From: Candidatus Rifleibacterium sp.
GTDB taxonomy: Bacteria; Muiribacteriota; Ozemobacteria; Ozemobacterales; Ozemobacteraceae
NCBI GenBank assembly: GCA_035352635.1
Contig: DAOPYA010000009.1
Span: 1,745 to 65,744, forward strand
DNA length: 64,000 nt
Direction: 5' to 3'
Shown piece after piece: positions 2,334 to 23,560 of the stretch. The stretch's first letter is position 1. Each line of letters starts with the position of its first letter. Made by a program: the position numbers and the translations under genes. Under the pieces are notes generated by a model. That model did not search any database. It was not told the DNA's origin and saw only the letters and a program-made list of their open reading frames with translations.

Positions 2334-2373
2334 TTGTATTGTTTTTATATACTATTGTATTGTTTTTATATAC
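2334..2373 (+). promoter_or_regulatory. Tandem 19-bp direct repeat (ttgtattgtttttatatac x2, 21-bp phasing), candidate operator
   Basis: The two copies at 2334-2352 and 2355-2373 are identical. The second ends 11 nt before ATG 2385 of the wHTH-nucleotidyltransferase gene. A TACAAT -10-like hexamer lies at 2371-2376. Confidence 0.5.
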
Positions 2374-2384
2374 AATATTGTTAG

Positions 2385-3393: not shown

Positions 3394-3394
3394 T

Positions 3395-4027: not shown

Positions 4028-4101
4028 TTCAGGTGGCAGACCATAGCGAGCTGGTTGAAGTTTTTGTTGGCAGAATTGGCCTTGACCGACAGCTAAAAAA
4101 T

Positions 4102-4706: not shown

Positions 4707-4712
4707 ACTTAT

Positions 4713-4741
4713 ATTATACGTCAATGACTGATAGACTGCAA
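4713..4741 (-). promoter_or_regulatory. Candidate sigma70 promoter giving a leaderless toxin mRNA
   Basis: On the minus strand: TTGCAG (4741-4736), a 17-nt spacer, then TATAAT (4718-4713), with ATG 4706 only 6 nt downstream. The 9-bp palindrome gtcaatgac (4720-4728) lies in the spacer. Confidence 0.4.
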
Positions 4742-4752
4742 CTGGTTTTGTC

Positions 4753-4843
4753 TTAGGAGGGCCCCTGGGGGCCGGTGGTCGGAAATTTGCCATCTGTGGC
4801 ATTTCCGACACTTGCCCTCCTGGGCTTCGGGAGGGACTGCGCC
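4753..4843 (+). repeat. 35-bp repeat, copy 2, interrupted by a 55-nt hairpin-bearing segment
   Basis: 4753-4769 (ttaggagggcccctggg) plus 4825-4843 (cttcgggagggactgcgcc) align to copy 1 with 3 mismatches and 1 indel. The intervening 4770-4824 contains the hairpin gtcggaaat..atttccgac (4778-4809). Confidence 0.5.
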
Positions 4844-4983
4844 TGCTGCTGATTGCCGGTCTTTTTTTCAGCAACCGGTTACGGGTGCTGGAACCCATGA
4901 CCTGTCACTATTGGCGGTGTATTTTTTGCAATATGGGGCGAGTTTGGTTATAATCAAGGCCGCAAATCAAAGGCCGGTGGGTT

Positions 4984-9290: not shown

Positions 9291-10418
9291 ATGCTGCTTG
9301 CGGCATGGCTGCTGCCTGCTGCCGGTTCGTTATTTGCCTCGACCCGGCCAGAGGGAAGCCTGATGCCCGTGCCCTTCGTCGAGCGCGAAGAGTCGAATAC
9401 AGATACGCCTTTTGGGCCTTATCGCGAGAAGTCTGCGCAGCGTTTCGTCTACACCCGCAAGACCGAAAACCTCGTTACTGAAATGAATTTCCGGCATGTT
9501 CTTTATAAGGATCTTAACGGAACAGCACCTGAGATGAACTGCCTGCATCAGTTTTCGTTCAAGGGCTATAATATGTCAAGCCCTCTTGAATTCAAGGCCG
9601 GCCGTATTGTGACCGGCAACAACCTTCTTCAGACCGTCGATGGTGTCTCGTGGTTTTATCCATCGGGCAATCGGCTGAAAACCACCGTAGATTTTGGCCG
9701 TATCGCGCCGATCGACATGAAAGGCTCTGCCGGCCAGCCTTCGTTTGCCGAAGGGCGCCTGCATTATTCCTTCAATGACAACGCCTATATGGCGATTAAG
9801 TCGGTTAAGCAGTTCGATGATGCCTTTAACGGGGCGATGCTTGGCTATAATGCTGATGAATTCAGGGTCAGCGGTGAGTATCTCAATGGCGGCGCTACTG
9901 ATACGCTGCACCTGGGGTTGCAGTATTTTGAGGCACGCCGTTTCGATCTGACTTCTGATTATCGGCTGTTTATGAATGACACAACCGACTCTGGCAATAT
10001 GCGGCACAGTGTGGGTCTTGAGAGCGGGCAACTTTATGTTGAGGGTGGCATCGGCAGCCAGTTCTGGTTCAATGGCCCCGAGAAGCCCGATTGCTGGTTT
10101 TATGATGGCAATGTAACTTTTACTTCAAAAAAACGTGACAACGCCAGTCTCGGCTACCTGGTCGAAACCGATAACGCCTCGACGAGTCGAACCATTTATG
10201 GTCGTGCCGAGCGGCGCATTTCGCACAAGACCACTTTTGGCATCGGCGTCGAAGACACCCGCTTCGAAAAAAGCGGTGGCACGGTGCAAAATCTCGAAGG
10301 CCGCCTGAATCGCCGTGTTCAATGGGGCTGGGTTGAATTGTCGGGTGCCGTAATCACTGGCGGTGGCGATTCTGACCTGCAAAAAGACATTCGCCTGCGT
10401 GCCGGCTACGAATTTTAA
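9291..10418 (+). CDS. Putative outer-membrane beta-barrel protein
   Basis: 375 aa with an N-terminal hydrophobic signal. It shows alternating beta-strand-like periodicity and a C-terminal ...LRAGYEF with terminal Phe. Confidence 0.5.
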   Translation: MLLAAWLLPAAGSLFASTRPEGSLMPVPFVEREESNTDTPFGPYREKSAQRFVYTRKTENLVTEMNFRHVLYKDLNGTAPEMNCLHQFSFKGYNMSSPLEFKAGRIVTGNNLLQTVDGVSWFYPSGNRLKTTVDFGRIAPIDMKGSAGQPSFAEGRLHYSFNDNAYMAIKSVKQFDDAFNGAMLGYNADEFRVSGEYLNGGATDTLHLGLQYFEARRFDLTSDYRLFMNDTTDSGNMRHSVGLESGQLYVEGGIGSQFWFNGPEKPDCWFYDGNVTFTSKKRDNASLGYLVETDNASTSRTIYGRAERRISHKTTFGIGVEDTRFEKSGGTVQNLEGRLNRRVQWGWVELSGAVITGGGDSDLQKDIRLRAGYEF

Positions 10419-10644: not shown

Positions 10645-13600
10645 ATGTTTGGTGATACCCTGAAAATCACACTGACCTCTGAATTCGCTAGCAAAGACGC
10701 CATCATTTCTGATGATGCGCACGGCAAATGCGACCGGCTGACCTATCAGCAGTTGACCGATGAGGTGGCCACCATTGCCGGCATGATCAGGGAGGCCGGT
10801 ATCGCCGCCGGTGAGCGGGTTATATTTGTCAGCGAAAATCATTTGTACTGGCTGCCGATTTTTCTTGGTATCACTAATGCCGGTGCCATCGCGGTTCCGA
10901 TTGATGGAAATTGCGCCGTTGAGCGTTTTCATGCCGTCGTTACCGACTGCCGGCCGGCCGGGGTAATCATTTCGCGCAAGTTTGAGAAGCGTTTTGCTGA
11001 ATTCATGCTTTCTGGTTGCGAAGTCAGGGCGACGATCAACCTGTATTTCGACCTTTTCGTCTTCAGCAACGTTTCTGAGACGGCAGTTGCCGCGATTGAA
11101 CCTAAGGCTGATGATACTGCCGCGATTATCTACACCTCTGGCACCACCGGTAAGCCCAAGGGCATCATGCTCAGCCACCGGGCCATCGTTGAATCAATCA
11201 AGCTCGGGCTGGTAATTTCGGGTTACAAGACCGAAGAACGCATGCTGGCGCTCTTGCCATTCACCCATGTTTTTGCCCTGATCGATTCGGGGCTGGTGAT
11301 GCTTGGCTGCCATTCGTCGCTGGTGGTCTGCAACAGCTTCAACCCGGGCGAAATCATGCAGGTGCTCATGAAACACCGTGCCACCTATGTGCTGGCGGTA
11401 CCGCGTCTCGCTGAACTGATGGCCATGGGGTTGATGCAGGCACCCGATATCAAGCTGCCTGGTTTGACCATGATTATCGGAGGGGCCTCGCCTCGCCCTG
11501 AAGTCATGCAATTATTGATCGCCCGTGGCATCAAGACTTTTCAGGGGTTCGGCATGACCGAAACGGCTGCTGGGGTGCTGATTGGCCACGATTGCCCGAT
11601 TGAGTCGGTTGGTCGGCCCCAATGTGGCGTAAGTGTCAGAATCAACGAACCGGTTAACGGAATCGGTGAATTGCTGATTGCCAGCCCGACCTTATTCTCG
11701 GGGGTTTTTGGTCAGCCTGGGCGTGATGAAACCATGTTTATAGACGGTTTTTTCAAAACCGGTGACCTGGCGCAGATGGATGCGGGTGGCAATGTTTATA
11801 TCAAAGGCCGGGCCAAAGAAGTTATTATCTCGGCTTCAGGGTTGAATGTTTACCCTGATGAGCTTGAGCTGCGTCTCGGCGCTCTGCCTTATGCTGAAGA
11901 ATACGTGATTTTCGGTTACTGCGCCGAAGGCCTGGAACTGCCAGCCCTGGCACTGCAGCGCCGCAATGAATTTTTTAAAGACCGCAGTGTCGGCAAGGTG
12001 CGTGATTTTGTCGAAGAAGATATTCGTCAGCGCACGGTCAACTGGCCGACCGCCGAGAAGATTCGCAAGATTTTTATCGTTGATCAGCCGTTGCCGCGTT
12101 CGGCGAGCGCCAAGATCAAACGCTTTGAGGTTGCGGCCATGTTTTGCTCTGAGGCAGCGCCGGTCAAGGCTCAGCCCGAAGAACGGGGCAATGTTCAGCT
12201 TGATGCCAAACTCTTTGAAATGTTTCGTTCTGAAGTAGCGGCTTTTTTGAATGTCGAACCCGGCAAAATCAATCTCAGCACCAGGCTTGATGAATTCATG
12301 ATGCTAGATTCGCTCGGGGTGATTGCTCTGATGATCAGACTCGAGAAACGGTTCACCATCTCTTTTCGAGAGTTGCTGGGCAGCTCGGTGACGACTTTCT
12401 CAGAGGTTTTTTCGTATCTGGCAAAGAGAGTCGATGGCGAAAAGCGCGAACTGGTTCAATCTTCAGAAGCCCCCGGTGGCAGTTTACCGCCGTTGCTTGA
12501 TTTTTCTGAAGCAGCGGTCGAGCGCCGCCAGCAGTTTATTCGCGATCTGACCGGCAATTCTGAATTCAGACTGCCCGTTGCCCCGGCGGTCGATGACTAT
12601 GCCGGTAATATCGAGGGTCTGGTGGGTTTTGCCATGCTGCCGGTCGGTATCTGTGGGCCGCTTAAAGTGGTAGGCCAGAAGGCTGTGGGCGATTTTTATC
12701 TGCCACTCGCTACCACCGAAGGGGCTCTGGTGTCTTCGGTGGCCCGGGGTTGCCAGGTTATCACGCTTTCGGGCGGTGCCGAAGTCAGACTGGTTAATGA
12801 CAGTGTCGTCAGAACGCCGGTTTTTGTTCTTGACTCGCTCGCTGAGCAGGAAAAGTTCTCTCACTGGATAGAAAACAATTTTTCGCGGATCAAGCAGGAA
12901 GCTGAAAAGACTACCAGGCACGGTAAACTCAAAGAAATAGAGCTTTTTCCCATCGGCTGCCAGTTGATTCTGCGCTTCAGCTTCTCGACCGGCGATGCTT
13001 CAGGGCAGAATATGACAACCATCGCGACCCGGGGCGCCGTTGATTATATTCTCAAGTATTATAACGGCCGCATCGATGACTGGTTTCTTGAATCGAACCT
13101 GTCGGGTGACAAGAAGATCAACAGCATTAACTTTACCGGCAATCGCGGCAAAAAGATGGTGGCGGCCTGCACGATACCGGCTTCGCTGGTTAAACAGGTG
13201 CTGCACACCACCCCCGAACGCATGTGCCGCCTGGCCGACCTCTCGATGGTGACTTCAATTCAGTCGCACTCATTTGGTGTGCAGGCGCATTACGCGAACA
13301 CTCTGGCGGCGGTTTATATTGCCACCGGCCAGGACCCGGCCTGCGTAGCAGAGTCGGCGGCTGGCATTACCTATCTGCAGATGCGTGACGGCAATCTGCA
13401 TATCAGCGTTACCCTGCCCGGCATAATGGTTGGTACAGTGGGGGGCGGCACCCGGTTGCCCACCCAGAAGAGTTGCCTTGACCTGATGCAGTGTGCCGGC
13501 TCGGGCAACTCGCAGAAATTCGCCGAAATTCTCGCGGTTGGCGTTCTGGCCGGCGAAATTTCGATCATCGGGGCCATGGCGGCCGATGAATTCACAGATG

Positions 13601-13653
13601 CGCACGCCCGATACGGTCGGGCCGGTGGTTTGAGCACTGGAGCGAAAAGCTGA
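10645..13653 (+). CDS. Tri-domain enzyme: adenylation (ANL) - carrier protein - HMG-CoA-reductase-like reductase
   Basis: 1002 aa with RBS GAGGAG. A-domain motifs: IYTSGTTGKPKG, GFGMTE, GDLAQMDAGGNVYIKGR, SASAKIKR. Carrier Ser in MLDSLGV. The C-terminal ~380 aa carry PLATTEGALV, SGDKKINSINF, IATGQDPACV, TVGGGT and a C-terminal DAH, matching the HMGR E/K/D/H positions. Confidence 0.85.
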   Translation: MFGDTLKITLTSEFASKDAIISDDAHGKCDRLTYQQLTDEVATIAGMIREAGIAAGERVIFVSENHLYWLPIFLGITNAGAIAVPIDGNCAVERFHAVVTDCRPAGVIISRKFEKRFAEFMLSGCEVRATINLYFDLFVFSNVSETAVAAIEPKADDTAAIIYTSGTTGKPKGIMLSHRAIVESIKLGLVISGYKTEERMLALLPFTHVFALIDSGLVMLGCHSSLVVCNSFNPGEIMQVLMKHRATYVLAVPRLAELMAMGLMQAPDIKLPGLTMIIGGASPRPEVMQLLIARGIKTFQGFGMTETAAGVLIGHDCPIESVGRPQCGVSVRINEPVNGIGELLIASPTLFSGVFGQPGRDETMFIDGFFKTGDLAQMDAGGNVYIKGRAKEVIISASGLNVYPDELELRLGALPYAEEYVIFGYCAEGLELPALALQRRNEFFKDRSVGKVRDFVEEDIRQRTVNWPTAEKIRKIFIVDQPLPRSASAKIKRFEVAAMFCSEAAPVKAQPEERGNVQLDAKLFEMFRSEVAAFLNVEPGKINLSTRLDEFMMLDSLGVIALMIRLEKRFTISFRELLGSSVTTFSEVFSYLAKRVDGEKRELVQSSEAPGGSLPPLLDFSEAAVERRQQFIRDLTGNSEFRLPVAPAVDDYAGNIEGLVGFAMLPVGICGPLKVVGQKAVGDFYLPLATTEGALVSSVARGCQVITLSGGAEVRLVNDSVVRTPVFVLDSLAEQEKFSHWIENNFSRIKQEAEKTTRHGKLKEIELFPIGCQLILRFSFSTGDASGQNMTTIATRGAVDYILKYYNGRIDDWFLESNLSGDKKINSINFTGNRGKKMVAACTIPASLVKQVLHTTPERMCRLADLSMVTSIQSHSFGVQAHYANTLAAVYIATGQDPACVAESAAGITYLQMRDGNLHISVTLPGIMVGTVGGGTRLPTQKSCLDLMQCAGSGNSQKFAEILAVGVLAGEISIIGAMAADEFTDAHARYGRAGGLSTGAKS

Positions 13654-13654
13654 T

Positions 13655-14413
13655 ATGAAAACGATTTTTGTGACTTCTGACGTTACCTATGTTAAAGATA
13701 ACTATCTGTCGGTCATTGACCGGGTCACCGACCGGGGCAATCTGCCGGCCGGCATTACCGCGGCCGGAGCCGTAATGATCAAGGTGCCCGAGAAGATACT
13801 TCTGAAAAATATTTTCGGGTTGCTGGCCATCGGTGCCCCGGGGTTCAGCTTTACCCTGTTGCGCAATATGCTGCAGTCGCGGTTAAACGACCCGCGGGTC
13901 AAGCTTCTCAACGAAAGGGGCGTCAGGCTCTTTCGCACCAAGACGGTTAACAGTCAGGCCGCGCTTGAATTTATCGGCGGTCTGGCCCCTGACCTGATAG
14001 TCAATATGCGTACCCGCAACATTTTTCGTAAGCCCGTGCTCGATCTGCCCAAAATCGGTTGTATTAACATTCATCATGGGCTGCTGCCTGACAATCGCGG
14101 CACCATGTGTGACCTGTGGGCCTGGGTCGAAGGCCGGCCCGTAGGTTTCTCAGTGCACTGGATGAACGAAAAGATTGACGACGGGGCGATTATCGAACGC
14201 TGCGAAGTCGATACCAGTGGCTGCCGATCTTATATTGAGATTCCGTATCGTTCAAGTCAACTAGAGGCGCCCTGCCTGCTGAGCTGCCTTGAGCGTATCC
14301 GTCGGCACGGGCGTAATATCGGTTTTCCTAATGTTACGGTTAAAGAAAACTACACCCGCACTCCATCGCCTGCAAAAATAGCCGAGATTCGCCGACGCGG
14401 TCTGAGACTGTAA
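13655..14413 (+). CDS. Formyltransferase-fold protein (Fmt/PurN N-terminal domain-like)
   Basis: 252 aa. NIHHGLLPDNRG matches the H-x-S/G-LLP-x-x-RG motif, followed by IDDGAII. The ATG is 1 nt after the upstream stop. Confidence 0.7.
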   Translation: MKTIFVTSDVTYVKDNYLSVIDRVTDRGNLPAGITAAGAVMIKVPEKILLKNIFGLLAIGAPGFSFTLLRNMLQSRLNDPRVKLLNERGVRLFRTKTVNSQAALEFIGGLAPDLIVNMRTRNIFRKPVLDLPKIGCINIHHGLLPDNRGTMCDLWAWVEGRPVGFSVHWMNEKIDDGAIIERCEVDTSGCRSYIEIPYRSSQLEAPCLLSCLERIRRHGRNIGFPNVTVKENYTRTPSPAKIAEIRRRGLRL

Positions 14414-14527
14414 TAAAACCCGGCCCTCTGGAAGCCTGCCGCTCTGGCCCGGTCTGGCAAACTATCTATTGTCAGTGTGGCGGGTGCGTGGTAACCTGAC
14501 GCTGAGCTTACACTCAGGAGACCATCT

Positions 14528-16231
14528 GTGAATTTATACGACAGGCTTCATAACCAGGCCATCGGTTTTTTTGACGGAAGTGACCCGCGTAATAATGTTG
14601 TTTCTCTGATGCAGCGTCACGTGGTTGAAAGGCCCGATGAGATTGCCTTTATGTTGCCTGAGCGCGATAAACTCCCCAAATGGGGCGATATGGTCGTCAC
14701 CAGTCTGGCACATAAGAAGGTCACTTTTCGGCAGTTTTTCAACCTGGTCTCTCTGGCTGCTTCTGGCCTCAAAAACATCGGCATCGGCCATGGCGACCGG
14801 GTTATTGTTTTTCTGCCCGTGTCGATACCCCTTTATCAGACGATGGCAGCCGTGCAGATGATCGGCGCCAGCGTTGTTTTTCTTGATTCGTGGGCACGCC
14901 GTGACCAGCTTGGGGTAAGTGCCGAAATTGCCGATGCCAGAGCGATGATCAGCTTTGAACAGGCTTTCGACCTTTGCAGGGGTGACCCCCGGTTCGATAA
15001 AATCCCGATCAGGGTCGTTGTCGGCCCGCATCACGGCAAATACACGGCCACTCTCGACCAGCTGCAGAAAAACGAGCCATGCCAGCAGGTCGAAGCGATG
15101 CGAGGCGATGAAACCGCGCTGATCACTTTCGCAACCGGCAGTTCAGGCCGCCCGAAAGGCGCCAGCCGCACCCATGATTTTCTGGCTGCCCAGCACTACG
15201 CTCTGCATGACTGTGTTCCGTACACAGCGGGTGACCTCGACCTGCCCGCTTTCCCGATATTTTCGCTGAATAATCTTGCTGAGGGCGTTATGACAGTAAT
15301 ACCGGTCGTCGATATCGGCCGGCCCTCAGAAAAAGATTCACTGATGCTGGCTAGTCAGATGATTGCGCTCGGCATTACCTGCGCCACTCTATCGCCGTCG
15401 ATGATGGCCGGGCTGGCAAATTTCTGCGAACAGAACAGCGTGGTCATGCCAAAAGTTCGCCGCCTGATCACCGCTGGTGCCCCGATCAGCAACGAAACCC
15501 TTGCCCTGATGAAAAAAGCGGTGCCGGCGGCCGAAATCTGGGTGCTTTATGGCTCGACCGAGGTCGAACCGATCGCCCATATTGAGGCCAACGACATTCT
15601 CAACCCGAAACAGGGTGGTGGCGAGGGGGTTTGTGTCGGCCATTTTGCCGCAGGTCTCGAAACCAGGTTCATTAAAATTCGCAAAGACGCCATAAAGCTG
15701 GTCAACGATGACTGGTCGCAGCTTGAAGTCGCACCGGGTGAGGTTGGCGAACTTCTGGTTGCCGGCCTGCATGTCTGCAAAGGCTATTACAACGATCAAG
15801 AAGCGGTTGAACGCACCAAGGTTGTCGAATCGAACGGCAAGGTCTGGCACCGAACCGGCGATCTGGCTTGTCTTGACAAGGCGCAGAACGTCTGGCTGGT
15901 TGGCCGTGTTCACAACGCCATTGCCCGTGGCGGGCGCCAGCTGTTTCCGGTTCAGGTTGAGATGCTGATGAAGAAAGTGGCTGGCGTTAAGCAGTCAGCT
16001 TTTCTTGGTGTGCCTGACCCTGAACTCGGCGAAAAAGCCTACGCACTCGTTCAGCTGGCTGATGACGCCAAAGCCCGCACCGGCGAGATTCTTAACAATA
16101 TTGCCCGTGAGCTGAAGTCCGCAAAGGTGCCGTTCGACCACCTCAATACCGTTGACGACATCCCCACAGACCCGAGGCATCACAGCAGGGTTGAATATGG
16201 AATTTTGCGTGAGCAGCTTTTTAAGAAATAG
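14528..16231 (+). CDS. ANL-superfamily adenylating enzyme, OleC / fatty-acid-CoA-ligase-family-like
   Basis: 567 aa, GTG start after AGGAGA. Motifs: ITFATGSSGRPKG, YGSTEVEP, TGDLACLD...VWLVGR, and a C-terminal DIPTDPRHHSRVEY. Confidence 0.8.
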   Translation: MNLYDRLHNQAIGFFDGSDPRNNVVSLMQRHVVERPDEIAFMLPERDKLPKWGDMVVTSLAHKKVTFRQFFNLVSLAASGLKNIGIGHGDRVIVFLPVSIPLYQTMAAVQMIGASVVFLDSWARRDQLGVSAEIADARAMISFEQAFDLCRGDPRFDKIPIRVVVGPHHGKYTATLDQLQKNEPCQQVEAMRGDETALITFATGSSGRPKGASRTHDFLAAQHYALHDCVPYTAGDLDLPAFPIFSLNNLAEGVMTVIPVVDIGRPSEKDSLMLASQMIALGITCATLSPSMMAGLANFCEQNSVVMPKVRRLITAGAPISNETLALMKKAVPAAEIWVLYGSTEVEPIAHIEANDILNPKQGGGEGVCVGHFAAGLETRFIKIRKDAIKLVNDDWSQLEVAPGEVGELLVAGLHVCKGYYNDQEAVERTKVVESNGKVWHRTGDLACLDKAQNVWLVGRVHNAIARGGRQLFPVQVEMLMKKVAGVKQSAFLGVPDPELGEKAYALVQLADDAKARTGEILNNIARELKSAKVPFDHLNTVDDIPTDPRHHSRVEYGILREQLFKK

Positions 16232-16297
16232 TTACCCCTCAGCAGCTGCAGCCATCAAGGCTGCAGTTTCATTTTAACCGGTCGACCTGGAGGTTTT

Positions 16298-17218
16298 ATG
16301 GCCTTTATTGCACGCTGGTGGCAGTTTTTAAAAGAGCGTCACGAGCCTTTTGGCATTACATTGATGGTCAGTGCTTTTTTTGCGGCCAGCGCTTTTATGG
16401 CATATCAGCCGGGGCTGCACGCTCCGCCTTGCTGGCGGCGTCTGACAGCCGGTTTTATCGTCGTCTGGCTGGTGTTTCTGCACATGCGCCTGTTCGACGA
16501 GGTAAAAGATTACCATTTTGACCGGGAGCACAACCCGGGGCGGCCCCTGGCACGTGGCCTGATCAGCGTAGGTGAGTTTTCTGCGATGACGCTGGTCTGT
16601 CTGCTGGCTGAACTAGGGCTTTCTGCGATTATGGCCTGGCCGATGCTGCCGGGTCTGGTCATGGTTCTGTGCTTTACCCTGTTGATGCGTATGGAATTTT
16701 TTATAGGCGACTGGCTGCGCCCCCAACTAGAGCTTTACGCGATCACTCACACGTTTTCGGCGGCAATGATCAGCATGCTGATTTACACGGTTGTCTGTTT
16801 TTCTGATTTCGCGGCTGTTGACCGGGGCATGCTGCTCTACGCTCTCGGCAACTGGTTTGTCTTTAATGTTTTTGAATTCGGCCGCAAGACTTTTGCGGTT
16901 GAAGAAGAGCGGGCGGGTGTTGATTCATATTCAGCACGCCTGCGGCCCTGGGGTGCGGTGCTTCTGTTGCTGGTCAACGTCGCTGCCGCCTACGCCGCTT
17001 TCTATTTTGCTGCCACCGCGAAATTTGCCGCCGTGGTTGACTGGCGCCTGCTTGGGCCGGCGGCCGGTGTGACTCTGCTGGTTGCCCTGGCCGGTGCCGT
17101 TTATGCTGCCCAACCAACCAAAGCTTTTGCCAAGCTTTATCGCGGGGTGGTAACCCTGTATCTGCTGGCTTACCCGGCTGCCATTGCCGCGTCGATTTAT
17201 CTGCTCGTTTATCGCTGA
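16298..17218 (+). CDS. UbiA-superfamily-like polytopic membrane protein
   Basis: 306 aa with about 8 hydrophobic segments. The first Asp-rich motif FDEVKDYHFDREHNPGRPLARG (DxxxDxxxD...RPL..G) is present. I could not identify a second Asp-rich motif. Confidence 0.6.
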   Translation: MAFIARWWQFLKERHEPFGITLMVSAFFAASAFMAYQPGLHAPPCWRRLTAGFIVVWLVFLHMRLFDEVKDYHFDREHNPGRPLARGLISVGEFSAMTLVCLLAELGLSAIMAWPMLPGLVMVLCFTLLMRMEFFIGDWLRPQLELYAITHTFSAAMISMLIYTVVCFSDFAAVDRGMLLYALGNWFVFNVFEFGRKTFAVEEERAGVDSYSARLRPWGAVLLLLVNVAAAYAAFYFAATAKFAAVVDWRLLGPAAGVTLLVALAGAVYAAQPTKAFAKLYRGVVTLYLLAYPAAIAASIYLLVYR

Positions 17219-17314
17219 AGGCAGTTGCCGAAAATGTACGGCAAAGATTTGGAGTTTGCGGGTTTGTCGGTTACAATTATTGTCTGATTCAAAGATATTC
17301 AAGAGGAACCTGAC

Positions 17315-20077
17315 ATGTATATAGTTTCATGCGCCAACCGTAATTTTGCAGAGGTAATGCCACTTGTGGGCGGCAAGGGCGGAAACCTGCTCAAGCTCAC
17401 CCAGGCCGGGGCCGATGTGCCGGCTTTCGCAGTGCTGACCCGCGAGTGCTTTGATGAGTTCATCGCCTCATTTCGTGATGAATTCAACCAGAAGCTTCAG
17501 GCTATCGACTGCTCGGCACCAGATAAAATTGCCAGAACTGCCGGCGAACTGCGTGAGTGCATGCTGCGCCACCCGATTCCAGAGCGTATCAGAACCGAGT
17601 TATTCGCAACCATGCGCAGTCTGTTGAAAGCTGACAGCTTTGTGGCGGTGCGCTCTTCGGCTCTTGGTGAAGATTCAAAAGAATTTTCATACGCCGGAAT
17701 GCTTGATACATGCCTTTTCAGACGCACAGACGCTGAAGTCTGTGAAGCGGTGCTGACCTGCTGGTCATCGATTTTTTCTGACCGGGCGGTGGCCTACCGC
17801 AATATGCGCGGCATCGCGCAGAACGATGTGTCGATGGCAGTCGTGGTTCAAGAGATGATCGATGGGGTCGCTTCAGGGGTTACCTTCACGGTTAACCCGA
17901 CCACCAGTTATGAAGACGAGATTCTCATCACTTCGGTTTTCGGGCTGGGTGAGGGGTTGGTGTCTGGTACCCTCGATTCAGACCAGTTTATTTGCCTGAA
18001 ACAGGATACTTACCCGGTGATCGAGACGAAGCTTGCCAATAAAGTTGAAAAGCTGGTTTTCGACCGCAAGAATAATTTTGGAACTCAGACAGTCGCCGTC
18101 GCTGATGATCAGGCCGGCAAGCCGAGTCTCAGTGACGCGCAGTTGCGCAGCGTTGCAACGGTTTGCCATCGTATCGAAGGCTCTTATCACAATGTTCCGC
18201 AGGATATCGAATGGACGATCGACAGCGAGGGCAGGGTACGGATTCTGCAGGCCCGCCCCATCACCACCATCGAGCGCCCGGTTCCGTCAGAGCGCCTGTA
18301 CACCACGATCTGGGATAACTCGAACATCGTCGAAAGCTATTCTGGCGTCACGACTCCATTGACTTTTTCGTTCGCTATCTATGCTTATCATCGCGTCTAT
18401 GTGCAGTTTTGCCAGGTTCTGATGGTGCCAGACGATGAGATTAAGGCCAACGATTTTGCCTTTGCCAACATGCTTGGCTTTTTGAACGGCCGCATCTATT
18501 ACAACCTGAAGAACTGGTATCGGCTGATCTCGGTGCTGCCGGGTTACAGCTATAACAGCCGTTTCATGGAAGGGATGATGGGCGTCAAGGCGAGCTACGA
18601 GAAGACGGTCAAGCAAAAACCGGTTGGCTTTTTTCAGAAATATTTTTACGAACTGCCTCGCCTGGCACTGGTCGGCGCCAATCTCGCCTACCGCTTCTGG
18701 CGCACCGACGCTGAAGTGAAGAATTTCATGGATGTTTATCAGGCGATGTACAACAAATACAAAGACTTTGACTTTGCCAAAGCGCCGGCGCACCGTCTGG
18801 TCGATATTTTTAACGAACTCGACAACACGGTATTGGCGAACTGGAAAGCGCCGATCATCAACGATTTCATGGCGATGATTTTTTATGGCATTCTTGACGC
18901 GTTGATGAAAAAATGGGATCTTAACGCAGACCCGGCCCTGAAGAACGACCTGCTCGCCGGCCAGGGCAATGTTGAAAGCACCCTGCCGCTGCGCACCATT
19001 CAGAAGATCGCCCGGTTCGTCTCGGCTGACGCCGGTCTCAAAGAGCTGTTCAAAACCCGCAGCGCCCCGCAATTAAAGGAAATGTTTATTCCGCTGCCCG
19101 GTAACGACCGACCGGCCGGGCATCAGCAGCTTGGCGCCCAGATTGCCGAATATCTTGAGAAATACGGTTATCGTGCCATGTGTGAGCTGAAGCTTGAAGA
19201 GCCTTCAATGAACGAGCGCCCTGAGTTTCTTTTCGACATGATCAAGAATTACTCCGCCGCCCCCCTGCCAGAAGAAGGCGATACTGGCGACAAGGAACGC
19301 CGGGTGCGCGAGGCCGCCGAACTCAAAGTCAGAACGCTTCTCGGCGACAGTGGCTTATTCTTTGGGCTGTTTAAAAAGCTTGATGTGCTGATGTTCGTTG
19401 CTAACTGGGCGAAGAAGGCCATGGCAGTGCGTGAGTATCAGCGCTTTGCCCGCACCAGAATGTATGGGCTGGTCAGCCGCATCTATAAAGGTTTTGGCCA
19501 GAGATTCGTCGAACGTGGCCTGCTCGACAAGGTTGATGATATTTTTTATCTGACCATGGAAGAAACCCTCGAGTATGTTACCGGCACCGCCCGCAGCCAG
19601 AAACTTCGCGAACTTGCTGCCCTGCGTCGTGCCGAGTTCGATGGCTATCGCAGCATGGATGAATTGCCAGACCGCATCGAGACCACCGGCATCACCTATT
19701 GCAACGATCTGACACGGGGCATGTTGCCCGCCATCGAGGGTGACGACGACCCGAATATTATTCGCGGCATTGGCGGCTGTTCTGGCAAGGTCACCGGCCC
19801 GGTCAAGGTTATTCTCAACCCAGGTGATGACATGTCGCTCAATGGTGAAATTCTGGTGGCGGCCCGCACTGACCCGGGCTGGGTGCCGTTATTTGCCACG
19901 GCTTCGGCCTTGCTGATCGAACGCGGCAGCATGCTGTCGCATTCGGTTATCGTGGCACGCGAACTTGGTTTGCCGGCGGTTGTGGGTGCCACCGGCGTCA
20001 CTAAAAAACTTAAAACAGGCGATGTTGTTGAGCTTGATGGCACGACCGGCATCGTTAAAGTAATTTCACGCGCCTGA
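17315..20077 (+). CDS. PEP-utilising enzyme family protein with rifampin-phosphotransferase-like architecture
   Basis: 920 aa. It has an N-terminal PPDK_N-type ATP-grasp (VGGKGGNLLKLTQAGADVPAF), a long central domain, and a C-terminal swivel His domain (ERGSMLSHSVIVARELGLPAVVG). Confidence 0.85.
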   Translation: MYIVSCANRNFAEVMPLVGGKGGNLLKLTQAGADVPAFAVLTRECFDEFIASFRDEFNQKLQAIDCSAPDKIARTAGELRECMLRHPIPERIRTELFATMRSLLKADSFVAVRSSALGEDSKEFSYAGMLDTCLFRRTDAEVCEAVLTCWSSIFSDRAVAYRNMRGIAQNDVSMAVVVQEMIDGVASGVTFTVNPTTSYEDEILITSVFGLGEGLVSGTLDSDQFICLKQDTYPVIETKLANKVEKLVFDRKNNFGTQTVAVADDQAGKPSLSDAQLRSVATVCHRIEGSYHNVPQDIEWTIDSEGRVRILQARPITTIERPVPSERLYTTIWDNSNIVESYSGVTTPLTFSFAIYAYHRVYVQFCQVLMVPDDEIKANDFAFANMLGFLNGRIYYNLKNWYRLISVLPGYSYNSRFMEGMMGVKASYEKTVKQKPVGFFQKYFYELPRLALVGANLAYRFWRTDAEVKNFMDVYQAMYNKYKDFDFAKAPAHRLVDIFNELDNTVLANWKAPIINDFMAMIFYGILDALMKKWDLNADPALKNDLLAGQGNVESTLPLRTIQKIARFVSADAGLKELFKTRSAPQLKEMFIPLPGNDRPAGHQQLGAQIAEYLEKYGYRAMCELKLEEPSMNERPEFLFDMIKNYSAAPLPEEGDTGDKERRVREAAELKVRTLLGDSGLFFGLFKKLDVLMFVANWAKKAMAVREYQRFARTRMYGLVSRIYKGFGQRFVERGLLDKVDDIFYLTMEETLEYVTGTARSQKLRELAALRRAEFDGYRSMDELPDRIETTGITYCNDLTRGMLPAIEGDDDPNIIRGIGGCSGKVTGPVKVILNPGDDMSLNGEILVAARTDPGWVPLFATASALLIERGSMLSHSVIVARELGLPAVVGATGVTKKLKTGDVVELDGTTGIVKVISRA

Positions 20078-20108
20078 GAGCGCCAAATTCACATCGGAGG
20101 CCTTGATC

Positions 20109-21203
20109 ATGAGTGCATCGGTAGTTTACAGCAATGTCTGGGAAGACCCCGAATTGAACCGGGTTTCCCTGAAAGTCAAACCCGGCCAGAATGTTCTGTC
20201 TATAACTTCGGGCGGTTGTAACTCGCTTAGTCTGCTGCTTGAAGACCCGGCGAAGCTTATTTCGATCGATCTGAACCCGGCCGCCCTTGCCATGCTTGAA
20301 TACAAGCGTGCCGCCATCATTGAACTCGGGTATGACGAATTCATCGACGCGCTGGGCACGCCGTTTCTTTTTAAACCCGAAAAGTCGCCTGAATACCGGG
20401 TCGAACTCTACAACCGCATTCGCAAGCACCTGCCGGCTTCGGCCGCCCAGTTCTGGGATGACCATCTGCACCAGGTCAAGAGCGGCATCATGATGTGCGG
20501 CAAGGTCGAGAAATTCTTCAAGTTCTATCGCACCGTGCTTGGCTGGCTCTACGGCAAAGATGAAATCATGAAACTGTTCAAGGCTGAAACTCTCGAACAG
20601 CAACGAGAGGTCTACGCCGGGTTCCGCAAGCAACGCTGGAATGCTTTGCATCGCCTGTTGCTTAACCGCAGTGTTCTGAGTCTGGTCAAAGGCGCTCATT
20701 CGTTTGCCCAGGTTGACTTTGAAGACTTCGCCGGCAACCTGAACCGCAAACGAACTCTCGGTATGACCCGCTTTTTCAACCCTGACAACTATTTTATGTG
20801 CCTGCTGCTGCTCGGCGGTCACTACCATGAGCGTGGCATGTCGCCCTATCTGCTGCGTGAAAACTACCCGAAACTGAAGAAGAACATCGGCAACCTTGAA
20901 ATCTTTCAGGGAACAATCGGCGATGTGCTCAAAAAAGACGGGCCGGGCAGTTATGACCGCTTCAATCTTTCGAATATCTTTGAATGGATGACCAACGAAG
21001 TGTTCAATGGCATCATCAGAGAGGTGCTTGAACTGTCACGACCGGGTGCCCGCCTGGCCTGGCGTTATACCTTCGCCAGACCCCGCGAACTCGACGCCCA
21101 GAACCTTGATCGCCTTGTTTATGAACCTGAGCTTTCTGAACAACTGTTCAAACAGGATCGGGCGTTTATCTACGAAAGCTTTCACGTCTACCACCTTAAA
21201 TAA
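20109..21203 (+). CDS. DUF3419 / BtaA-like SAM-dependent 3-amino-3-carboxypropyl transferase
   Basis: ATG 20109 lies 8 nt after GGAGG. YSNVWEDPELNRVSL, VLSITSGGCNSLSLLL and SIDLNPAALAMLEYK fit the BtaA-family N-terminal signature. Confidence 0.75.
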   Translation: MSASVVYSNVWEDPELNRVSLKVKPGQNVLSITSGGCNSLSLLLEDPAKLISIDLNPAALAMLEYKRAAIIELGYDEFIDALGTPFLFKPEKSPEYRVELYNRIRKHLPASAAQFWDDHLHQVKSGIMMCGKVEKFFKFYRTVLGWLYGKDEIMKLFKAETLEQQREVYAGFRKQRWNALHRLLLNRSVLSLVKGAHSFAQVDFEDFAGNLNRKRTLGMTRFFNPDNYFMCLLLLGGHYHERGMSPYLLRENYPKLKKNIGNLEIFQGTIGDVLKKDGPGSYDRFNLSNIFEWMTNEVFNGIIREVLELSRPGARLAWRYTFARPRELDAQNLDRLVYEPELSEQLFKQDRAFIYESFHVYHLK

Positions 21204-21260: not shown

Positions 21261-21329
21261 GCATGACGGGTATTACCCTGTGGGCTGATTTGTGTTACAA
21301 TTAGCTTGAGTGAACGACTTGGAGGCTTT

Positions 21330-22100
21330 ATGCGAACAATCAGACTGATAACTTGCTTGATGGTGATGCTGCTGGCCGGTGCGGTTGCCGCAATGGCACT
21401 AACCGCCCAGGAAGTCCTGCAAAAAGTTGAAGATCGTTATATCGGCAAAACTTCGAAAGCTCAGGTCCAAATGGATCTGATCGATAAATCAGGCGGGGTT
21501 CGCGAGCGCAAGATGGTAATTTCCCGCCGCAAGGTTGATGGCAGCAACAAAGACAACTTTATTCATTTCGTTGCGCCGCCCGACATTCGCAATACCACCT
21601 ATCTGGTCAACGAAAAGAACCGTGAACGCCAGAAATGGATCTACCTCTCAGCTTTCAAGAATACCCGCAGAATTCTTGCCGAAGACTACGCCATGGCTTT
21701 CGTATCGAGTGACTTTACCTACGAAGACATGGATGACATCAGGGCCGACGATTATGTTGCCAGCGACCTCAAAGAAGAAAAGCTCGGTGACAAAGACGTG
21801 TATTCGATTTCGGTGAGCAAAAAAGATGCTAACACGAGCTATGCCAAAGTAATCATGAAGGTGTGCAAGAATACCTTTGTAGTGCTGCGTTCCGAAATGT
21901 ATGACAAAAAAGCCCCCGAAAAAATGGTCAAAGAAATGACTGCGGCAAATCTTGAACAGATCCAGGAAATCTGGACCCCGAAAGAAGTCGTTATGAAAGA
22001 CCTCGTCAAGGGTACGACGACCAGCCTCAAAACAGCCAAAATCGCCTACGATCTTGAATTGACTGATGAAGAGTTCTCACAGCGCAACATGGAAAAGTGA
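21330..22100 (+). CDS. LolA-like outer-membrane lipoprotein-sorting family protein
   Basis: ATG 21330 follows GGAGG. Signal peptide MRTIRLITCLMVMLLAGAVAAMA. AQEVLQKVEDRY...MDLIDKSGGVRERKMVISRRK...FIHFVAPPDIRNTTYLV is typical of this family. Confidence 0.7.
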   Translation: MRTIRLITCLMVMLLAGAVAAMALTAQEVLQKVEDRYIGKTSKAQVQMDLIDKSGGVRERKMVISRRKVDGSNKDNFIHFVAPPDIRNTTYLVNEKNRERQKWIYLSAFKNTRRILAEDYAMAFVSSDFTYEDMDDIRADDYVASDLKEEKLGDKDVYSISVSKKDANTSYAKVIMKVCKNTFVVLRSEMYDKKAPEKMVKEMTAANLEQIQEIWTPKEVVMKDLVKGTTTSLKTAKIAYDLELTDEEFSQRNMEK

Positions 22101-22107
22101 TGGAATC

Positions 22108-22155
22108 ATAAAATCAAGAATCGCAGACCTTCGGGTCTGCGATTCTTGATTTTAT
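22108..22155 (+). terminator. 22-bp perfect-stem hairpin (terminator/attenuator or RNA-processing site)
   Basis: ataaaatcaagaatcgcagacc (22108-22129), loop ttcg, then ggtctgcgattcttgattttat (22134-22155). It lies 7 nt after the LolA-like stop. Confidence 0.6.
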
Positions 22156-22216
22156 GGGCGTAATTATTGCGCGGCCGGGTGCCGATAATTCAGATAAGAA
22201 ATATCAACCCGGAGGC

Positions 22217-23560
22217 ATGCAGATCAGCAGAACTCTGCCGATAAAGCGTTGGCGGCCTGGTAGCGGGCCGGCATTGCAGATCGCACTTGTGGCGATCACT
22301 TTTTTGCTGCTGTTGCCGGCTGTTCTGCCCGTTGGTGCGGCTGACGAATGGGATACCTGGGGCGACAGCGGCGAAAAGACTGGTGAACCTGTAATAAAGC
22401 GCCCATTTATTTCGGGCTGGTGGAACTGGCAGTACAACGAATTTTCTTCGTTTGATCAGGGTCGGGTCAACTTCGAAAAGGAGTTGGGCAACGGCAGTAA
22501 ACTGCTCACCGGCCTCAGAATCAACTATTACACTGAAGATAACAACAAGAAATGGAAGGTTTTTCCGGGGGAAAACTATTACTTCTGCAAGGCCGGCGAT
22601 CTTGATTTCAAGGCCGGCATGCTCATCGAGAACATTGGCAGCGGCGACAAGTTTTCGTTTGTCGACAAGCTCAATTCGCGCTATTTCCATAACGGGCTGG
22701 CCAATGATTATGACCGCGATAAAAAAGAGGTACCCGGCGTCAGGGCAACCTGGTACATTAACCGGCATTTCAAATTTTCGGGGCATTATCTGCCGTATTT
22801 TACCGCCAGTGAGTTCCCGACTATTTACAGTAAATGGGCTTATGCGATTCACAAGTCGCTTGCCAGCGAGCTTTTATTTAAGGGCGGGGTGTACAACGCC
22901 GCGAGTGATGCGAGCTTTGACCCTCAGTTTCACGTGGAACTCAGCTCTGTATACCCTAAGATCGAGATGCGGTTTCATTATCTCAGATTAAAAGAGCGTT
23001 TGCCGGTTATCAGTCAAGACAAGCCGGGAATTTTTAACGGCAGCTACCCCCTCGACGAGACTTTTGCGGTGAATGGCAACCTGACCCTGAGCAAGGAACT
23101 GCTGTTGCGCTACGAGTTGGCCTGGAGTCGTGATCGCACCTGGACAACCTATGAAGAGGGGCATATCGGGCAAAAGTTTGTCAGCGATCATGTTGGCATG
23201 TTGTTTGGCACTGACCGCAACCTGCCGAATAACTTTTACGTTAATGTACAGGGCATGGTGTCGCATGTTCCTGATTTTAAGGCAACCACGCCGTTTCAAC
23301 TTAATGAAACCGAGTATCTCAGTTCGTTGCAGATGCGGCAGAATTTTCGCCAGGATCGCCTGCAGATCGAATTAAACGTCTTGAAGAATTTTTCGTCGGG
23401 CGAGTATGTGCTGACGCCGAAAATTCAGATAATCAAGTCAGACTACCTGACTTTTATGCTTGGTTATCAGATGAACGGCGAGGGTGCAGAAACTCTTGGC
23501 CCGGTAGGCCAATTTTCAGAGAACAACACCGCTGTTTTTGAGACCCGCGTTACTTTTTGA
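22217..23560 (+). CDS. Putative outer-membrane beta-barrel protein
   Basis: The start is uncertain: ATG 22217 gives MQISRTLPIKRWRPGSGPALQIALVAITFLLLLPAVLPVGAA, while ATG 22154 lies inside the hairpin. It is rich in Tyr/Gly/Asn beta-strand repeats and ends ...FETRVTF with terminal Phe. Confidence 0.55.
   Translation: MQISRTLPIKRWRPGSGPALQIALVAITFLLLLPAVLPVGAADEWDTWGDSGEKTGEPVIKRPFISGWWNWQYNEFSSFDQGRVNFEKELGNGSKLLTGLRINYYTEDNNKKWKVFPGENYYFCKAGDLDFKAGMLIENIGSGDKFSFVDKLNSRYFHNGLANDYDRDKKEVPGVRATWYINRHFKFSGHYLPYFTASEFPTIYSKWAYAIHKSLASELLFKGGVYNAASDASFDPQFHVELSSVYPKIEMRFHYLRLKERLPVISQDKPGIFNGSYPLDETFAVNGNLTLSKELLLRYELAWSRDRTWTTYEEGHIGQKFVSDHVGMLFGTDRNLPNNFYVNVQGMVSHVPDFKATTPFQLNETEYLSSLQMRQNFRQDRLQIELNVLKNFSSGEYVLTPKIQIIKSDYLTFMLGYQMNGEGAETLGPVGQFSENNTAVFETRVTF

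Follow-up and report, generated by a model that had tools for sequence, protein, structure and literature searches.

Which reductase can complete an enzyme that activates a carboxylic acid and loads it on a carrier domain? Enzymes with the order adenylation-carrier-reductase (A-T-R) do much of the work in natural-product release and in the biocatalytic reduction of acids. Those known to us as characterised all have an SDR-type reductase and in most cases go no further than the aldehyde. The stretch of 64,000 nucleotides from Candidatus Rifleibacterium sp. analysed here (the window) raises this question with a single open reading frame (ORF), for which a preliminary description had proposed a complete adenylation domain and a carrier domain, followed by a reductase with the fold of class I HMG-CoA reductase (HMGR) and all four of its catalytic positions. 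We consider it fairly probable that this ORF encodes a carrier-dependent carboxylic acid reductase with an HMGR-fold reducing module, which would perform the four-electron reduction of an acid to an alcohol and feed a probable envelope-lipid pathway.

Domain organization of the fused protein

The ORF is located exactly where it had been placed, at 10645..13653 on the + strand, with an ATG start and a length of 1002 aa. The three Pfam families named in advance (AMP-binding, PP-binding and HMG-CoA_red) all match on this one chain, and the preliminary motifs were retrieved within it. No match to the SDR-type families PF07993 (NAD_binding_4) or PF01370 was obtained in the Pfam scan of the 1002-aa protein, whose C-terminus is HMG-CoA_red. 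The AlphaFold2 model of the fused protein has a mean pLDDT of 78 and is a monomer, while HMGR active sites lie at a dimer interface and carrier docking is outside its reach. In Foldseek searches, its N-terminal part resembles ANL ligases and the EntE-EntB A-PCP, and its C-terminal part archaeal HMGR (6hr7/6hr8; TM 0.76, about 40% identity).

The ANL adenylation domain (residues 1-505; 10645..12159, + strand) contains an AMP-binding match at residues 16-353 (E 7e-61) and the ANL core motifs A3, A5, A7, A8 and A10. Its P-loop is IYTSGTTGKPKG (residues 163-173, with K172), the A10 Lys490 lies within SASAKIKR, and further key residues are H208, T305/E306, D374 and R389, all these motif residues being invariant in 52 full-length sequences. 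The top PDB matches are feruloyl/fatty-acyl-CoA synthetase (8wev/8weu), MatB and FadD13, and oxalyl-CoA synthetase 6qjz was matched by Foldseek (TM 0.83). The A4 motif reads FTHVF, with the invariant H208, which we take to be the acyl/aryl-CoA-ligase type as opposed to the FDxS type, with its Asp, of amino-acid A domains.

The carrier (T/ACP) domain follows at residues about 519-596 (12199..12432, + strand). Its PP-binding match covers residues 528-578 with 23.3 bits (gathering cut-off of 20.8), and the same family matches 16 of 17 family members when the carrier region is scanned alone. The predicted phosphopantetheine-bearing residue is Ser556 in LDSLG (codon 12310-12312); S556, L557 and G558 are invariant in the 52 sequences. 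Besides, a carrier-region profile searched against PDB matched acyl carrier proteins of type II FAS with the serine aligned (2ehs, E 2.6e-10).

The fusion is genuine

About 55 homologue clusters (at 90% identity) were found, 41-83% identical to the query, among which 52 sequences are full length (at least 950 aa). These full-length homologues (about 52, from independent assemblies) include 15 species-level Candidatus Riflebacteria/Ozemobacteraceae genomes and one Wallbacteria genome, and the genome scan likewise retrieved the fusion in 15 species-level genomes. Across the 52 full-length sequences, all catalytic and carrier residues vary hardly or not at all. That assembly or gene calling joined separate genes, for which the related contig L008 could plead since its A part and T-HMGR part are called as two genes, has practically no chance of being correct. 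Indeed, the fused form recurs across many independent assemblies, and the L008 split results from a frameshift in an A8 homopolymer of the inter-domain linker, on a contig where the dikinase gene is also split; this frameshift likewise rules out L008 as a natural separation of A from T-HMGR. The fusion is genuine and the artefact reading is refuted. Of the two outcomes that would have overturned the preliminary description, a C-terminal domain failing to score as HMG-CoA_red and a fusion created by assembly, neither was observed, and its parts that are accessible to sequence analysis were all borne out. Moreover, the A-T-HMGR architecture extends beyond the window gene to Wallbacteria, Woesearchaeota and bacterial A-T-HMGR-kinase proteins.

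An HMGR-like reductase with an altered HMG pocket

The HMGR-like reductase domain (residues 620-992; 12502..13620, + strand) matches HMG-CoA_red at residues 624-992, over positions 1-368 of the 368 of the profile (E 1.1e-108, 364 bits), and archaeal HMGR 6hr7 with 302 bits, which agrees with the class I fold proposed earlier. The four catalytic positions could also be assigned in human HMGR numbering: E692, carried by ATTEG, is equivalent to E559; D822-K823-K824, the DKK motif, to D690/K691/K692; D897, carried by GQD, to D767; and the C-terminal H987 to H866. In addition, N885 is equivalent to N755. The equivalents of E559, K691, D767, H866 and N755 are 98-100% conserved in the 52 fused proteins.

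The pocket differs from that of canonical HMGR. In class I enzymes, Ser684 and Lys735 recognize the HMG carboxylate, K735 through a salt bridge (PMC9500038). The position of human K735 is occupied by L866 in the window protein and by L, V, M or T across the fused family, never by Lys, and that of S684 is E816, a glutamate in 100% of the family; DASGQN is found where canonical HMGR has DAMGMN. As judged from these alignments, the HMG-specific carboxylate contacts K735 and S684 are lost. R590, D690, K691, K692, H752 and N755 (human numbering) are kept, and since R590, D690 and K692 also contact HMG, a short polar 3-hydroxy acid may still be accepted as substrate.

In this analysis, we defined an HMGR-like clade, which is not a named family, by E/D at human position 684, a residue other than Lys at 735 and the motif DA[SAG]GQN. 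The window reductase carries this signature (E816, L866, DASGQN), scores 348.6 bits against the NCBIfam HMGR equivalog TIGR00533, under its cut-off of 441.8, and clusters with non-canonical HMGR-like proteins, apart from the S684/K735 enzymes, in a neighbour-joining tree computed without branch support. Identity is similar whether the domain is compared with a genuine archaeal HMGR (45%) or with its HMGR-like relatives (45-53%), so that the non-HMG assignment rests on a few pocket positions and on gene context. By these signature residues, the domain is a member of this large clade and not a canonical HMGR.

A large share of the bacterial proteins annotated as HMG-CoA reductase lack Lys735 and, in nearly all of those examined, Ser684. 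They occur in Vibrionaceae, Bacteroidota, PVC phyla, Acidobacteriota and Geobacter, the non-Vibrionaceae ones in a conserved operon. Such annotations affect the inference of isoprenoid pathways from genomes.

The gene cluster and its stand-alone counterparts

The neighbouring genes described here are all encoded on the + strand. Just upstream, a conserved 375-aa secreted or outer-membrane-like protein (9291..10418) gave no Pfam or other family match; homologues with 40-85% identity occupy the same upstream position in L001, L002, L013, L016-L018 and L024-L026. Downstream, 1 nt separates the end of the fused gene from the start of the gene for an N-formyltransferase-like protein of 252 aa (13655..14413; Pfam Formyl_trans_N, 6.5e-15). 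Its nearest PDB relatives are sugar N-formyltransferases, FMT and ArnA, its N-x-H...D motif is intact, and in 14 of the 15 genomes with the fusion its gene directly follows the fused one. It is followed by a second ANL ligase of 567 aa, PRK09274/OleC-like and named AMP2 here (14528..16231), with orthologues of 33-60% identity in stand-alone HMGR-like operons, and by a UbiA-like membrane transferase of 306 aa (16298..17218). The latter was assigned from weak NCBIfam prenyltransferase matches and operon conservation, and the Pfam UbiA family matches its orthologues. The next gene encodes a 920-aa dikinase resembling PEP synthase and rifampicin phosphotransferase (17315..20077; Pfam PPDK_N and PEP-utilizers). 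In NCBIfam, it matches PRK06241.2-2 (798 bits), RedH (393 bits), PigC (340 bits) and also Rph, and its orthologues contain an Rph_4th domain. A protein of 366 aa (20103..21203; Pfam 5.4e-65) from DUF3419, the family to which the betaine-lipid enzyme BtaA belongs, comes next; its gene adjoins HMGR-like genes in most operons. Finally, a LolA-like outer-membrane lipoprotein-sorting protein (21306..22100; Pfam LolA_like, 2.7e-44), conserved in L012, L013, L017 and L019, is flanked by a 468-aa protein (22154..23560) with homologues in L013 and L019 and no Pfam or NCBIfam match. Among the scanned window genes and in related loci, we detected no gene of the mevalonate pathway.

The genes at 13655-21203 are the same as those of the stand-alone HMGR-like operon, and 14528-21203 is orthologous to loci L006 and L007 at 28-40% identity. 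Stand-alone clade members are surrounded by this syntenic operon in at least 8 phyla; besides DUF3419, it encodes an ANL ligase, a UbiA-like transferase, a dikinase resembling rifampicin phosphotransferase, and either a GNAT-like protein or a formyltransferase. At least 3 of 4 genes (UbiA-like, PPDK/Rph-like, DUF3419 and AMP2) are present in 22 of 29 non-Vibrionaceae stand-alone loci. Judged by this synteny, the fused gene belongs to a pathway of several conserved genes (13655-21203 and flanks). Nearly all stand-alone operons contain AMP2. It is absent beside the fused gene in the closest relatives of the window (L012, L013, L017 and L022), where the fused A-T part apparently stands in for the free ligase; the window itself carries both. 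The stand-alone operons also encode a 452-aa membrane protein that gave no Pfam and no PDB profile match and whose DAxAAxxGxxYG...KSLEGS motif is, in our estimation, reminiscent of CTP-dependent polyprenol/phytol kinases. As a carrier-specific partner, the formyltransferase is a weakened candidate: its homologues are also present in carrier-less stand-alone operons (L028 and L067), where they substitute for the 369-aa GNAT-like gene.

The HMGR-like domain also has other fusion partners. It is combined with kinases of APH/EcKL/choline-kinase type (P0289, P0291, P0342, P0372 and P0384), with both A-T and a kinase (P0259 and P0277), with an acyl-CoA-binding ACBP domain (P0315) and with DUF3419 (P0261). 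An N-terminal carrier domain in the HMGR-kinase proteins of ~900 aa was unsupported by the carrier-region HMM search. In Woesearchaeota, the neighbours of A-T-HMGR are GpsA, PlsC-like, GPAT and DAG-kinase-like genes, and genes for the DUF3419/BtaA family, PS-decarboxylase, MMPL and LolA-like proteins occur in clusters.

Proposed reaction and alternatives

We infer the direction of the reaction, the number of electrons transferred (four), the kind of substrate and the sequence in which the later steps occur as follows. The ANL domain would adenylate a carboxylic acid other than HMG, most likely a lipid-like and possibly 3-hydroxylated acyl chain, and then move the acyl group onto the phosphopantetheine arm of Ser556. 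The arm would bring the thioester into the site equivalent to the CoA site of HMGR, where the Glu/Lys/Asp/His/Asn set would support two NAD(P)H-dependent hydride transfers, from thioester through hemithioacetal/aldehyde to primary alcohol, His987 protonating the departing pantetheine thiolate. The alcohol would be handed to the co-encoded pathway, in which the Rph-like dikinase may phosphorylate the new hydroxyl and the UbiA-like membrane transferase, the BtaA-family DUF3419 enzyme and the N-formyltransferase would act. An envelope lipid is the probable product, and the LolA-like and outer-membrane proteins (and an MMPL transporter in relatives) would handle it. A lipid-like substrate is suggested by the ACBP fusion, by the ElbD-like and A-T-PlsC acyltransferase proteins being the nearest A-T relatives, by the Woesearchaeota neighbourhood and by the DUF3419/BtaA, PS-decarboxylase, MMPL and LolA-like genes of the clusters.

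How far the reduction proceeds is the point on which the nearest alternative turns. The predicted four-electron reduction on the pantetheine arm appears well motivated, and an alcohol is the likely product because the HMGR-like domain is fused to kinases in several lineages and the operon encodes an Rph-like phosphotransferase. A two-electron reduction stopping at the aldehyde, as in CAR and NRPS R domains, would instead pass an aldehyde to the dikinase or another enzyme. Classical A-T-R enzymes release aldehydes, and the relationship of the dikinase to RedH and PigC, which are regarded as acting on an aldehyde, makes such an end-product possible. We nevertheless hold it to be unlikely, since the residues for both hydride transfers are all conserved, HMGR retains its aldehyde intermediate and reduces it further, and the recurrent kinase fusions point to a hydroxyl product. 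Slightly less probable again is an amino or other small polar acid, which the adjacent formyltransferase would N-formylate while it is bound to the carrier (compare the F-A-PCP of LgrA) and which would be released reductively as an N-formyl amino alcohol. The translational coupling of the formyltransferase, its persistence behind the fused gene and its intact motif would fit, as would the invariant E816, which could pair in the pocket with a cationic or hydrogen-bond-donating group. However, the A domain has the H208 type of A4 motif and lacks the Asp of amino-acid-activating domains, and the formyltransferases of carrier-less operons suggest the capping of an amine that another step of the pathway produces, for instance that of the BtaA-family enzyme.

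Finally, the protein might be a genuine HMGR of the mevalonate pathway, fused by chance to an acyl-CoA ligase and a carrier (e.g. a ligase channelling HMG or acetoacetate). The full-length, high-scoring HMG-CoA_red match, the 45% identity to a solved archaeal HMGR and the six kept residues listed above speak for it. This explanation is nonetheless very improbable given the K735 to L and S684 to E changes, the TIGR00533 score, the placement in the tree and a neighbourhood of UbiA-like, Rph-like, DUF3419 and formyltransferase genes devoid of mevalonate genes. The carrier-dependent reduction of a lipid-like acid to its alcohol is the reading that we prefer.

Relation to known systems and significance

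Like CAR and the terminal R domains of NRPS/PKS, the fused protein would load an acid on a phosphopantetheinyl carrier by means of an ANL domain and release it reductively by means of an NAD(P)H-dependent domain at the C-terminus; there, however, the reductase is an SDR/NAD_binding_4 Rossmann domain, whereas here it has the non-homologous HMGR fold. CAR stops at the aldehyde, while HMGR chemistry is intrinsically four-electron and proceeds to the alcohol. With class I HMGR (human 1dq8 and M. thermolithotrophicus 6hr7), the window protein shares the fold, the Glu/Lys/Asp/His/Asn set, GTVGGGT and the cis-loop DKK at 36-45% identity. It differs by its lack of K735 and S684, DASGQN, A-T fusion, non-mevalonate context and sub-threshold NCBIfam score, and its substrate is presumably borne on a protein-bound pantetheine instead of CoA. 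The nearest A-T relatives, the myxobacterial ElbD-type and the A-T-PlsC-type enzymes (27-30% identical to the window protein and 36-39% to the Woesearchaeota version), have fatty-acid-loading roles in lipid biosynthesis but carry SDR-type reductase (PF07993/PF03015) and/or PlsC domains, never HMG-CoA_red. In phytol salvage, the kinases VTE5 and VTE6 phosphorylate a lipid alcohol and the UbiA-family phytyltransferase VTE2 uses the product. By analogy only, the cluster would likewise combine a reductase that forms an alcohol with a phosphotransferase and a UbiA-like protein, although its kinase is Rph/PEP-synthase-like rather than VTE5/VTE6-like and its alcohol would come de novo from an acid. 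No description of the A-T-HMGR architecture or operon was found in full-text literature searches, whose coverage is incomplete and whose silence is absence of evidence only.

If the proposed reaction is true, an HMGR-fold module that acts on thioesters tethered to a carrier would represent a non-homologous replacement of the SDR reductase, and the fused protein a natural self-contained acid-to-alcohol catalyst. A broader and rather doubtful proposal is that the HMGR-like clade and its partners form an unrecognized, widespread lipid pathway, in which acids are reduced by an HMGR-fold enzyme, phosphorylated and transferred as prenyl groups are, so that envelope lipids of ether or diol type would be made by a new route in at least 8 bacterial phyla. 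The partners may be an ANL ligase or fused A-T, an Rph-like/APH-like kinase, a UbiA-like transferase, a BtaA-family enzyme and an N-acyl/formyl transferase. Were this correct, the pathway would reach DPANN archaea through the A-T-HMGR variant beside GpsA/PlsC/GPAT genes, and the long-standing orphan archaeal-type HMGR of Vibrio would be explained as a non-HMG reductase. The conserved operon points to an undescribed lipid pathway that is accessible in cultured strains, with Dyadobacter and Luteolibacter sp. AS25 as examples of those that carry it.

Domain organization and conservation of the fused protein

The fused gene at 10645..13653 (+) has an ATG start and a product of 1002 aa, in which Pfam recognizes an AMP-binding domain (residues 16-353, E 7e-61), a PP-binding domain (residues 528-578, 23.3 bits for a cut-off of 20.8) and, over its entire 368-position profile, an HMG-CoA_red domain (residues 624-992, E 1.1e-108). 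The preliminary description had proposed, by eye, an adenylation (A)-carrier (T)-reductase enzyme whose reductase has the fold of HMG-CoA reductase (HMGR); every motif that it quoted was found at its place, and the profile scans agree with its three domains. The carrier call is weak from the single sequence but solid with a family profile, which matches type II FAS acyl carrier proteins of the PDB (2.6e-10) with the DSL serine aligned; PP-binding is matched by 16 of 17 family members. An AlphaFold2 model from 52 homologues (mean pLDDT 78) was compared with Foldseek, which returned the ANL enzymes oxalyl-CoA synthetase 6qjz (TM 0.83), MatB, 4CL and MenE as well as the EntE-EntB A-PCP didomain. 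For the C-terminal part, the match to archaeal class I HMGR 6hr7/6hr8 (TM 0.76, ∼40% identity) corroborates the anticipated fold. We regard the tri-domain architecture as practically certain.

That separate genes had been joined by assembly, a possibility raised at the outset, is refuted by the breadth of the family. A search of 5.8 billion proteins gave ∼55 same-family clusters (identity 41-83%), 52 of them full-length (at least 950 aa), and all named members belong to Candidatus Riflebacteria/Rifleibacteriota/Ozemobacter(aceae). Scanning one genome per GTDB species revealed the full-length fusion in 15 genomes, from Riflebacteria/Ozemobacteraceae and Candidatus Wallbacteria GWC2_49_35. In the 52-sequence alignment, positions that are invariant or >90% conserved include the P-loop 163-173, H208, T305/E306, D374, R389 and the A10 lysine K490 in the A domain, S556-L557-G558 in the carrier, and E692, D822-K823-K824, H882, N885, D897 and H987 in the HMGR domain. 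In one locus, L008, on a Riflebacteria-like contig, A and T-HMGR are called as two genes; the break is a frameshift in an A8 homopolymer of the inter-domain linker (9935-9943), the dikinase is likewise split on this contig, and the gene split is probably a sequencing error. The sequences thus compared indicate a real fusion under selection.

Divergence of the reductase domain from canonical HMGR

With human residue numbering transferred via PDB alignments, the catalytic E559, K691, D767, H866 and N755 are kept, and likewise R590, D690, K692 and H752. Lysine 735, which binds HMG's terminal carboxylate through a salt bridge (PMC9500038), is replaced by L866 in the window protein and by L, V, M or T family-wide. 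The S684 position is occupied by E816 in all family members, DAMGMN has become DASGQN, and K722 is a histidine in the window protein's domain. The divergence from HMGR is concentrated in the acyl pocket. The same substitutions are common to the ∼100 nearest stand-alone "HMG-CoA reductases" (420-430 aa, identity 45-52%), which have no A-T part, and the canonical S684/K735/MM combination is present in only 3 of the 86 checked representatives with an HMGR-type domain from an exhaustive HMMER search. A neighbour-joining tree, tentative as it carries no branch support, separates the non-canonical proteins from the S684/K735 enzymes; identity to genuine archaeal HMGR (45%) is similar to that inside the divergent group. 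We therefore class the domain, on its residues, as HMGR-like and not as canonical HMGR.

Vibrio, Photobacterium and Aliivibrio encode an "HMG-CoA reductase" with D684, M735 and DASGQN (loci L029, L030, L032 and L057, the last from Vibrio cholerae ATCC 14035, plus a further 32 loci of Vibrionaceae/Colwelliaceae). The HMG-carboxylate contacts are therefore missing, and this enzyme may not be an HMG-CoA reductase. In the genomes recovered, from 35 Vibrionaceae species and one member of Colwelliaceae, its gene is solitary.

Gene neighbourhood and a related operon in other phyla

Downstream of the fused gene, genes share one strand with gaps of 1-114 nt. One nucleotide after it lies a formyltransferase gene (13655-14413, +; 252 aa), whose product has sugar N-formyltransferases, FMT and ArnA as nearest solved relatives and an intact N-x-H...D motif. 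It is followed by genes for AMP2, a second ANL ligase of PRK09274/OleC-like type (14528-16231, +), a UbiA-like membrane protein (16298-17218, +), a 920-aa dikinase similar to PEP synthase/rifampicin phosphotransferase (PPDK/Rph-like; 17315-20077, +), a BtaA-family (betaine-lipid) DUF3419 protein (20103-21203, +), a LolA-like protein (21306-22100, +) and a protein without family match (22154-23560, +). Upstream, a conserved 375-aa protein is also without family match (9291-10418).

Outside Vibrionaceae, the stand-alone HMGR-like genes are members of a syntenic seven-gene operon found in at least eight phyla, in the order HMGR-like, UbiA-like, PPDK/Rph-like, DUF3419, a 452-aa membrane protein, a 369-aa GNAT-like protein and AMP2, with 28-62% identity to the window proteins (stand-alone loci L027-L091; for example L041 10001-19584, L085 10001-19121 and L081 10001-19836). 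At least three of AMP2, UbiA, PPDK and DUF3419 accompany the gene in 22 of 29 such loci, the others being mostly truncated contigs. Carriers include Planctomycetota and Verrucomicrobiota (among them Luteolibacter sp. AS25 and Victivallales); in Bacteroidota, several Dyadobacter, Spirosomataceae, Chitinophagaceae and Flavobacteriales; and Acidobacteriaceae, Geobacter, Parachlamydiales, Fibrobacteres, Muproteobacteria and Tritonobacter. Cultured strains exist for Dyadobacter spp., such as D. psychrotolerans and D. soli, and for Luteolibacter sp. AS25. The operon appears uncharacterized, and may lead to something more novel than the fused gene itself.

The formyltransferase, directly 3' of the fused gene in 14 of 15 fused loci, substitutes for the 369-aa gene in Tritonobacter (L028 19372-19914), Verrucomicrobium (L067 3683-4420) and Riflebacteria, while the GNAT-like gene is present in L027, L031 and L035, among others. 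This mutual exclusivity suggests two routes to N-capping of the same amine. AMP2 is near-universal beside stand-alone genes; beside the fused gene it is restricted to certain lineages (the window, L003, L019-L021) and is absent from the window's closest relatives (L012, L013, L017, L022), which fits a takeover of acid activation by the fused A-T part. The clusters also repeatedly contain genes for lipid handling: an MMPL transporter (L008, L019, L075), a PS-decarboxylase homologue (L009) and LolA-like genes. The 452-aa multi-pass membrane protein (L031 12362-13717 and homologues) has an invariant D...G...G...Y...K..EGS motif; Pfam and PDB searches gave no match for it, and the Riflebacteria loci with fused genes showed no neighbouring homologue. 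Its motif is, we presume, reminiscent of CTP-dependent polyprenol/phytol kinases.

Other fusions of the HMGR-like domain

To survey fusions, 1.84 billion representatives were searched exhaustively with HMMER and the matches scanned with Pfam (proteins numbered P). Additional A-T-HMGR lineages were found (P0244/P0388, P0246, P0247, P0405), as were A-T-HMGR-kinase proteins whose C-terminus is APH/EcKL/choline-kinase-like (P0259 and P0277, the latter in a bacterial context, L011 6767-11263), HMGR-kinase (P0289, P0291, P0342, P0372, P0384), HMGR-DUF3419 (P0261), HMGR-ACBP (acyl-CoA-binding protein; P0315), PilZ-HMGR (P0256, P0268) and, from Enterobacter kobei, A-HMGR without carrier (P0297, WP_318374512.1). 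K735 is absent from every fusion protein checked, and S684 from nearly every one.

The P0388 family comes from Candidatus Woesearchaeota (DPANN archaea). On an archaeal contig (L010 10001-13132), its A-T-HMGR gene lies between genes for a GpsA-type glycerol-3-phosphate dehydrogenase, PlsC-like and GPAT acyltransferases, a DAG-kinase-like protein, a Zn-ADH and a Lar_N protein. This glycerolipid gene set is of bacterial type, here in an archaeon. Bacterial A-T-PlsC proteins share 36-39% identity with the Woesearchaeota A-T part but only ∼27% with the window A-T, so the carrier-linked forms may have more than one origin.

Proposed pathway and alternatives

Catalytic sets are complete in all three domains, the match to an HMG-type pocket is gone, and the companion genes are conserved. 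In the pathway that we propose, the A domain would adenylate a non-HMG acid and load it on Ser556-phosphopantetheine, the HMGR-like domain would accept this pantetheine thioester in place of CoA's, and two HMGR-type hydride transfers would yield a primary alcohol. The alcohol would then be phosphorylated by the Rph-like dikinase, or elsewhere by the fused APH-type kinase, and further processed by the UbiA-like transferase, the BtaA-family enzyme and the formyltransferase, which would probably cap the aminocarboxypropyl amine. Reduction to the alcohol on the carrier seems reasonably probable. We favour a lipid-like acyl substrate and an envelope lipid as product, on the basis of the ACBP fusion, the A-T relatives, the glycerolipid genes around the Woesearchaeota fusion and the transport genes; a specifically long-chain or lipid substrate is a tentative assignment. 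The retained R590, D690 and K692 and the OleC-like AMP2 leave room for a 3-hydroxy acid giving a 1,3-diol.

With HMGR, the window protein shares fold and catalytic set, while HMG recognition is lost and the 348.6 bits that it reaches with the NCBIfam HMGR equivalog model fall short of the 441.8 cut-off; altered pocket, low score and genomic context together disfavour a canonical HMGR. The kinship of the dikinase with PigC and RedH makes a reduction ending at the aldehyde possible, although the kinase fusions of the HMGR-like domain argue for an alcohol. The tight coupling of formyltransferase and fused gene could point to an N-formyl amino alcohol made on the carrier, but this scheme is weakened by formyltransferases in operons without carrier and by the A4 motif of the A domain, whose H208 we infer to be of acyl-CoA-ligase type, without the amino-acid-type Asp. 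The proposed carrier-bound reduction of a non-HMG acid would resemble CAR and NRPS A-T-R systems in its working logic, but the SDR reductase that defines them is missing. Since our full-text literature search, of incomplete coverage, found no publication on the A-T-HMGR architecture or the operon, we rate the protein a putative variant of carrier-dependent reductive release via a non-homologous reductase.

Carrier helix II is unusually basic (SLGVIALMIRLEKRF; residues 556-570, nt 12310-12354), and the C-terminal flap of fused-family members carries the acidic pair D981/E982 (nt 13585-13590), where stand-alone relatives mostly show G at the first position and vary at the second (D, H, Q or E). 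Both elements could form a docking interface.

Elsewhere in the window, the region 1-4900 begins with ∼4 kb of low GC (0.41-0.44 versus ∼0.52 elsewhere). Toxin-antitoxin-type genes occupy 441-4898: AbiEi/AbiEii (441-2057), a nucleotidyltransferase and an overlapping 152-aa ORF without Pfam match (2385-3393), and RelE-like and HTH/MqsA-like genes (4102-4898, -). A giant ORF of 3685 aa (28791-39848, -) is rich in repeated segments and includes a long Gly-rich stretch.
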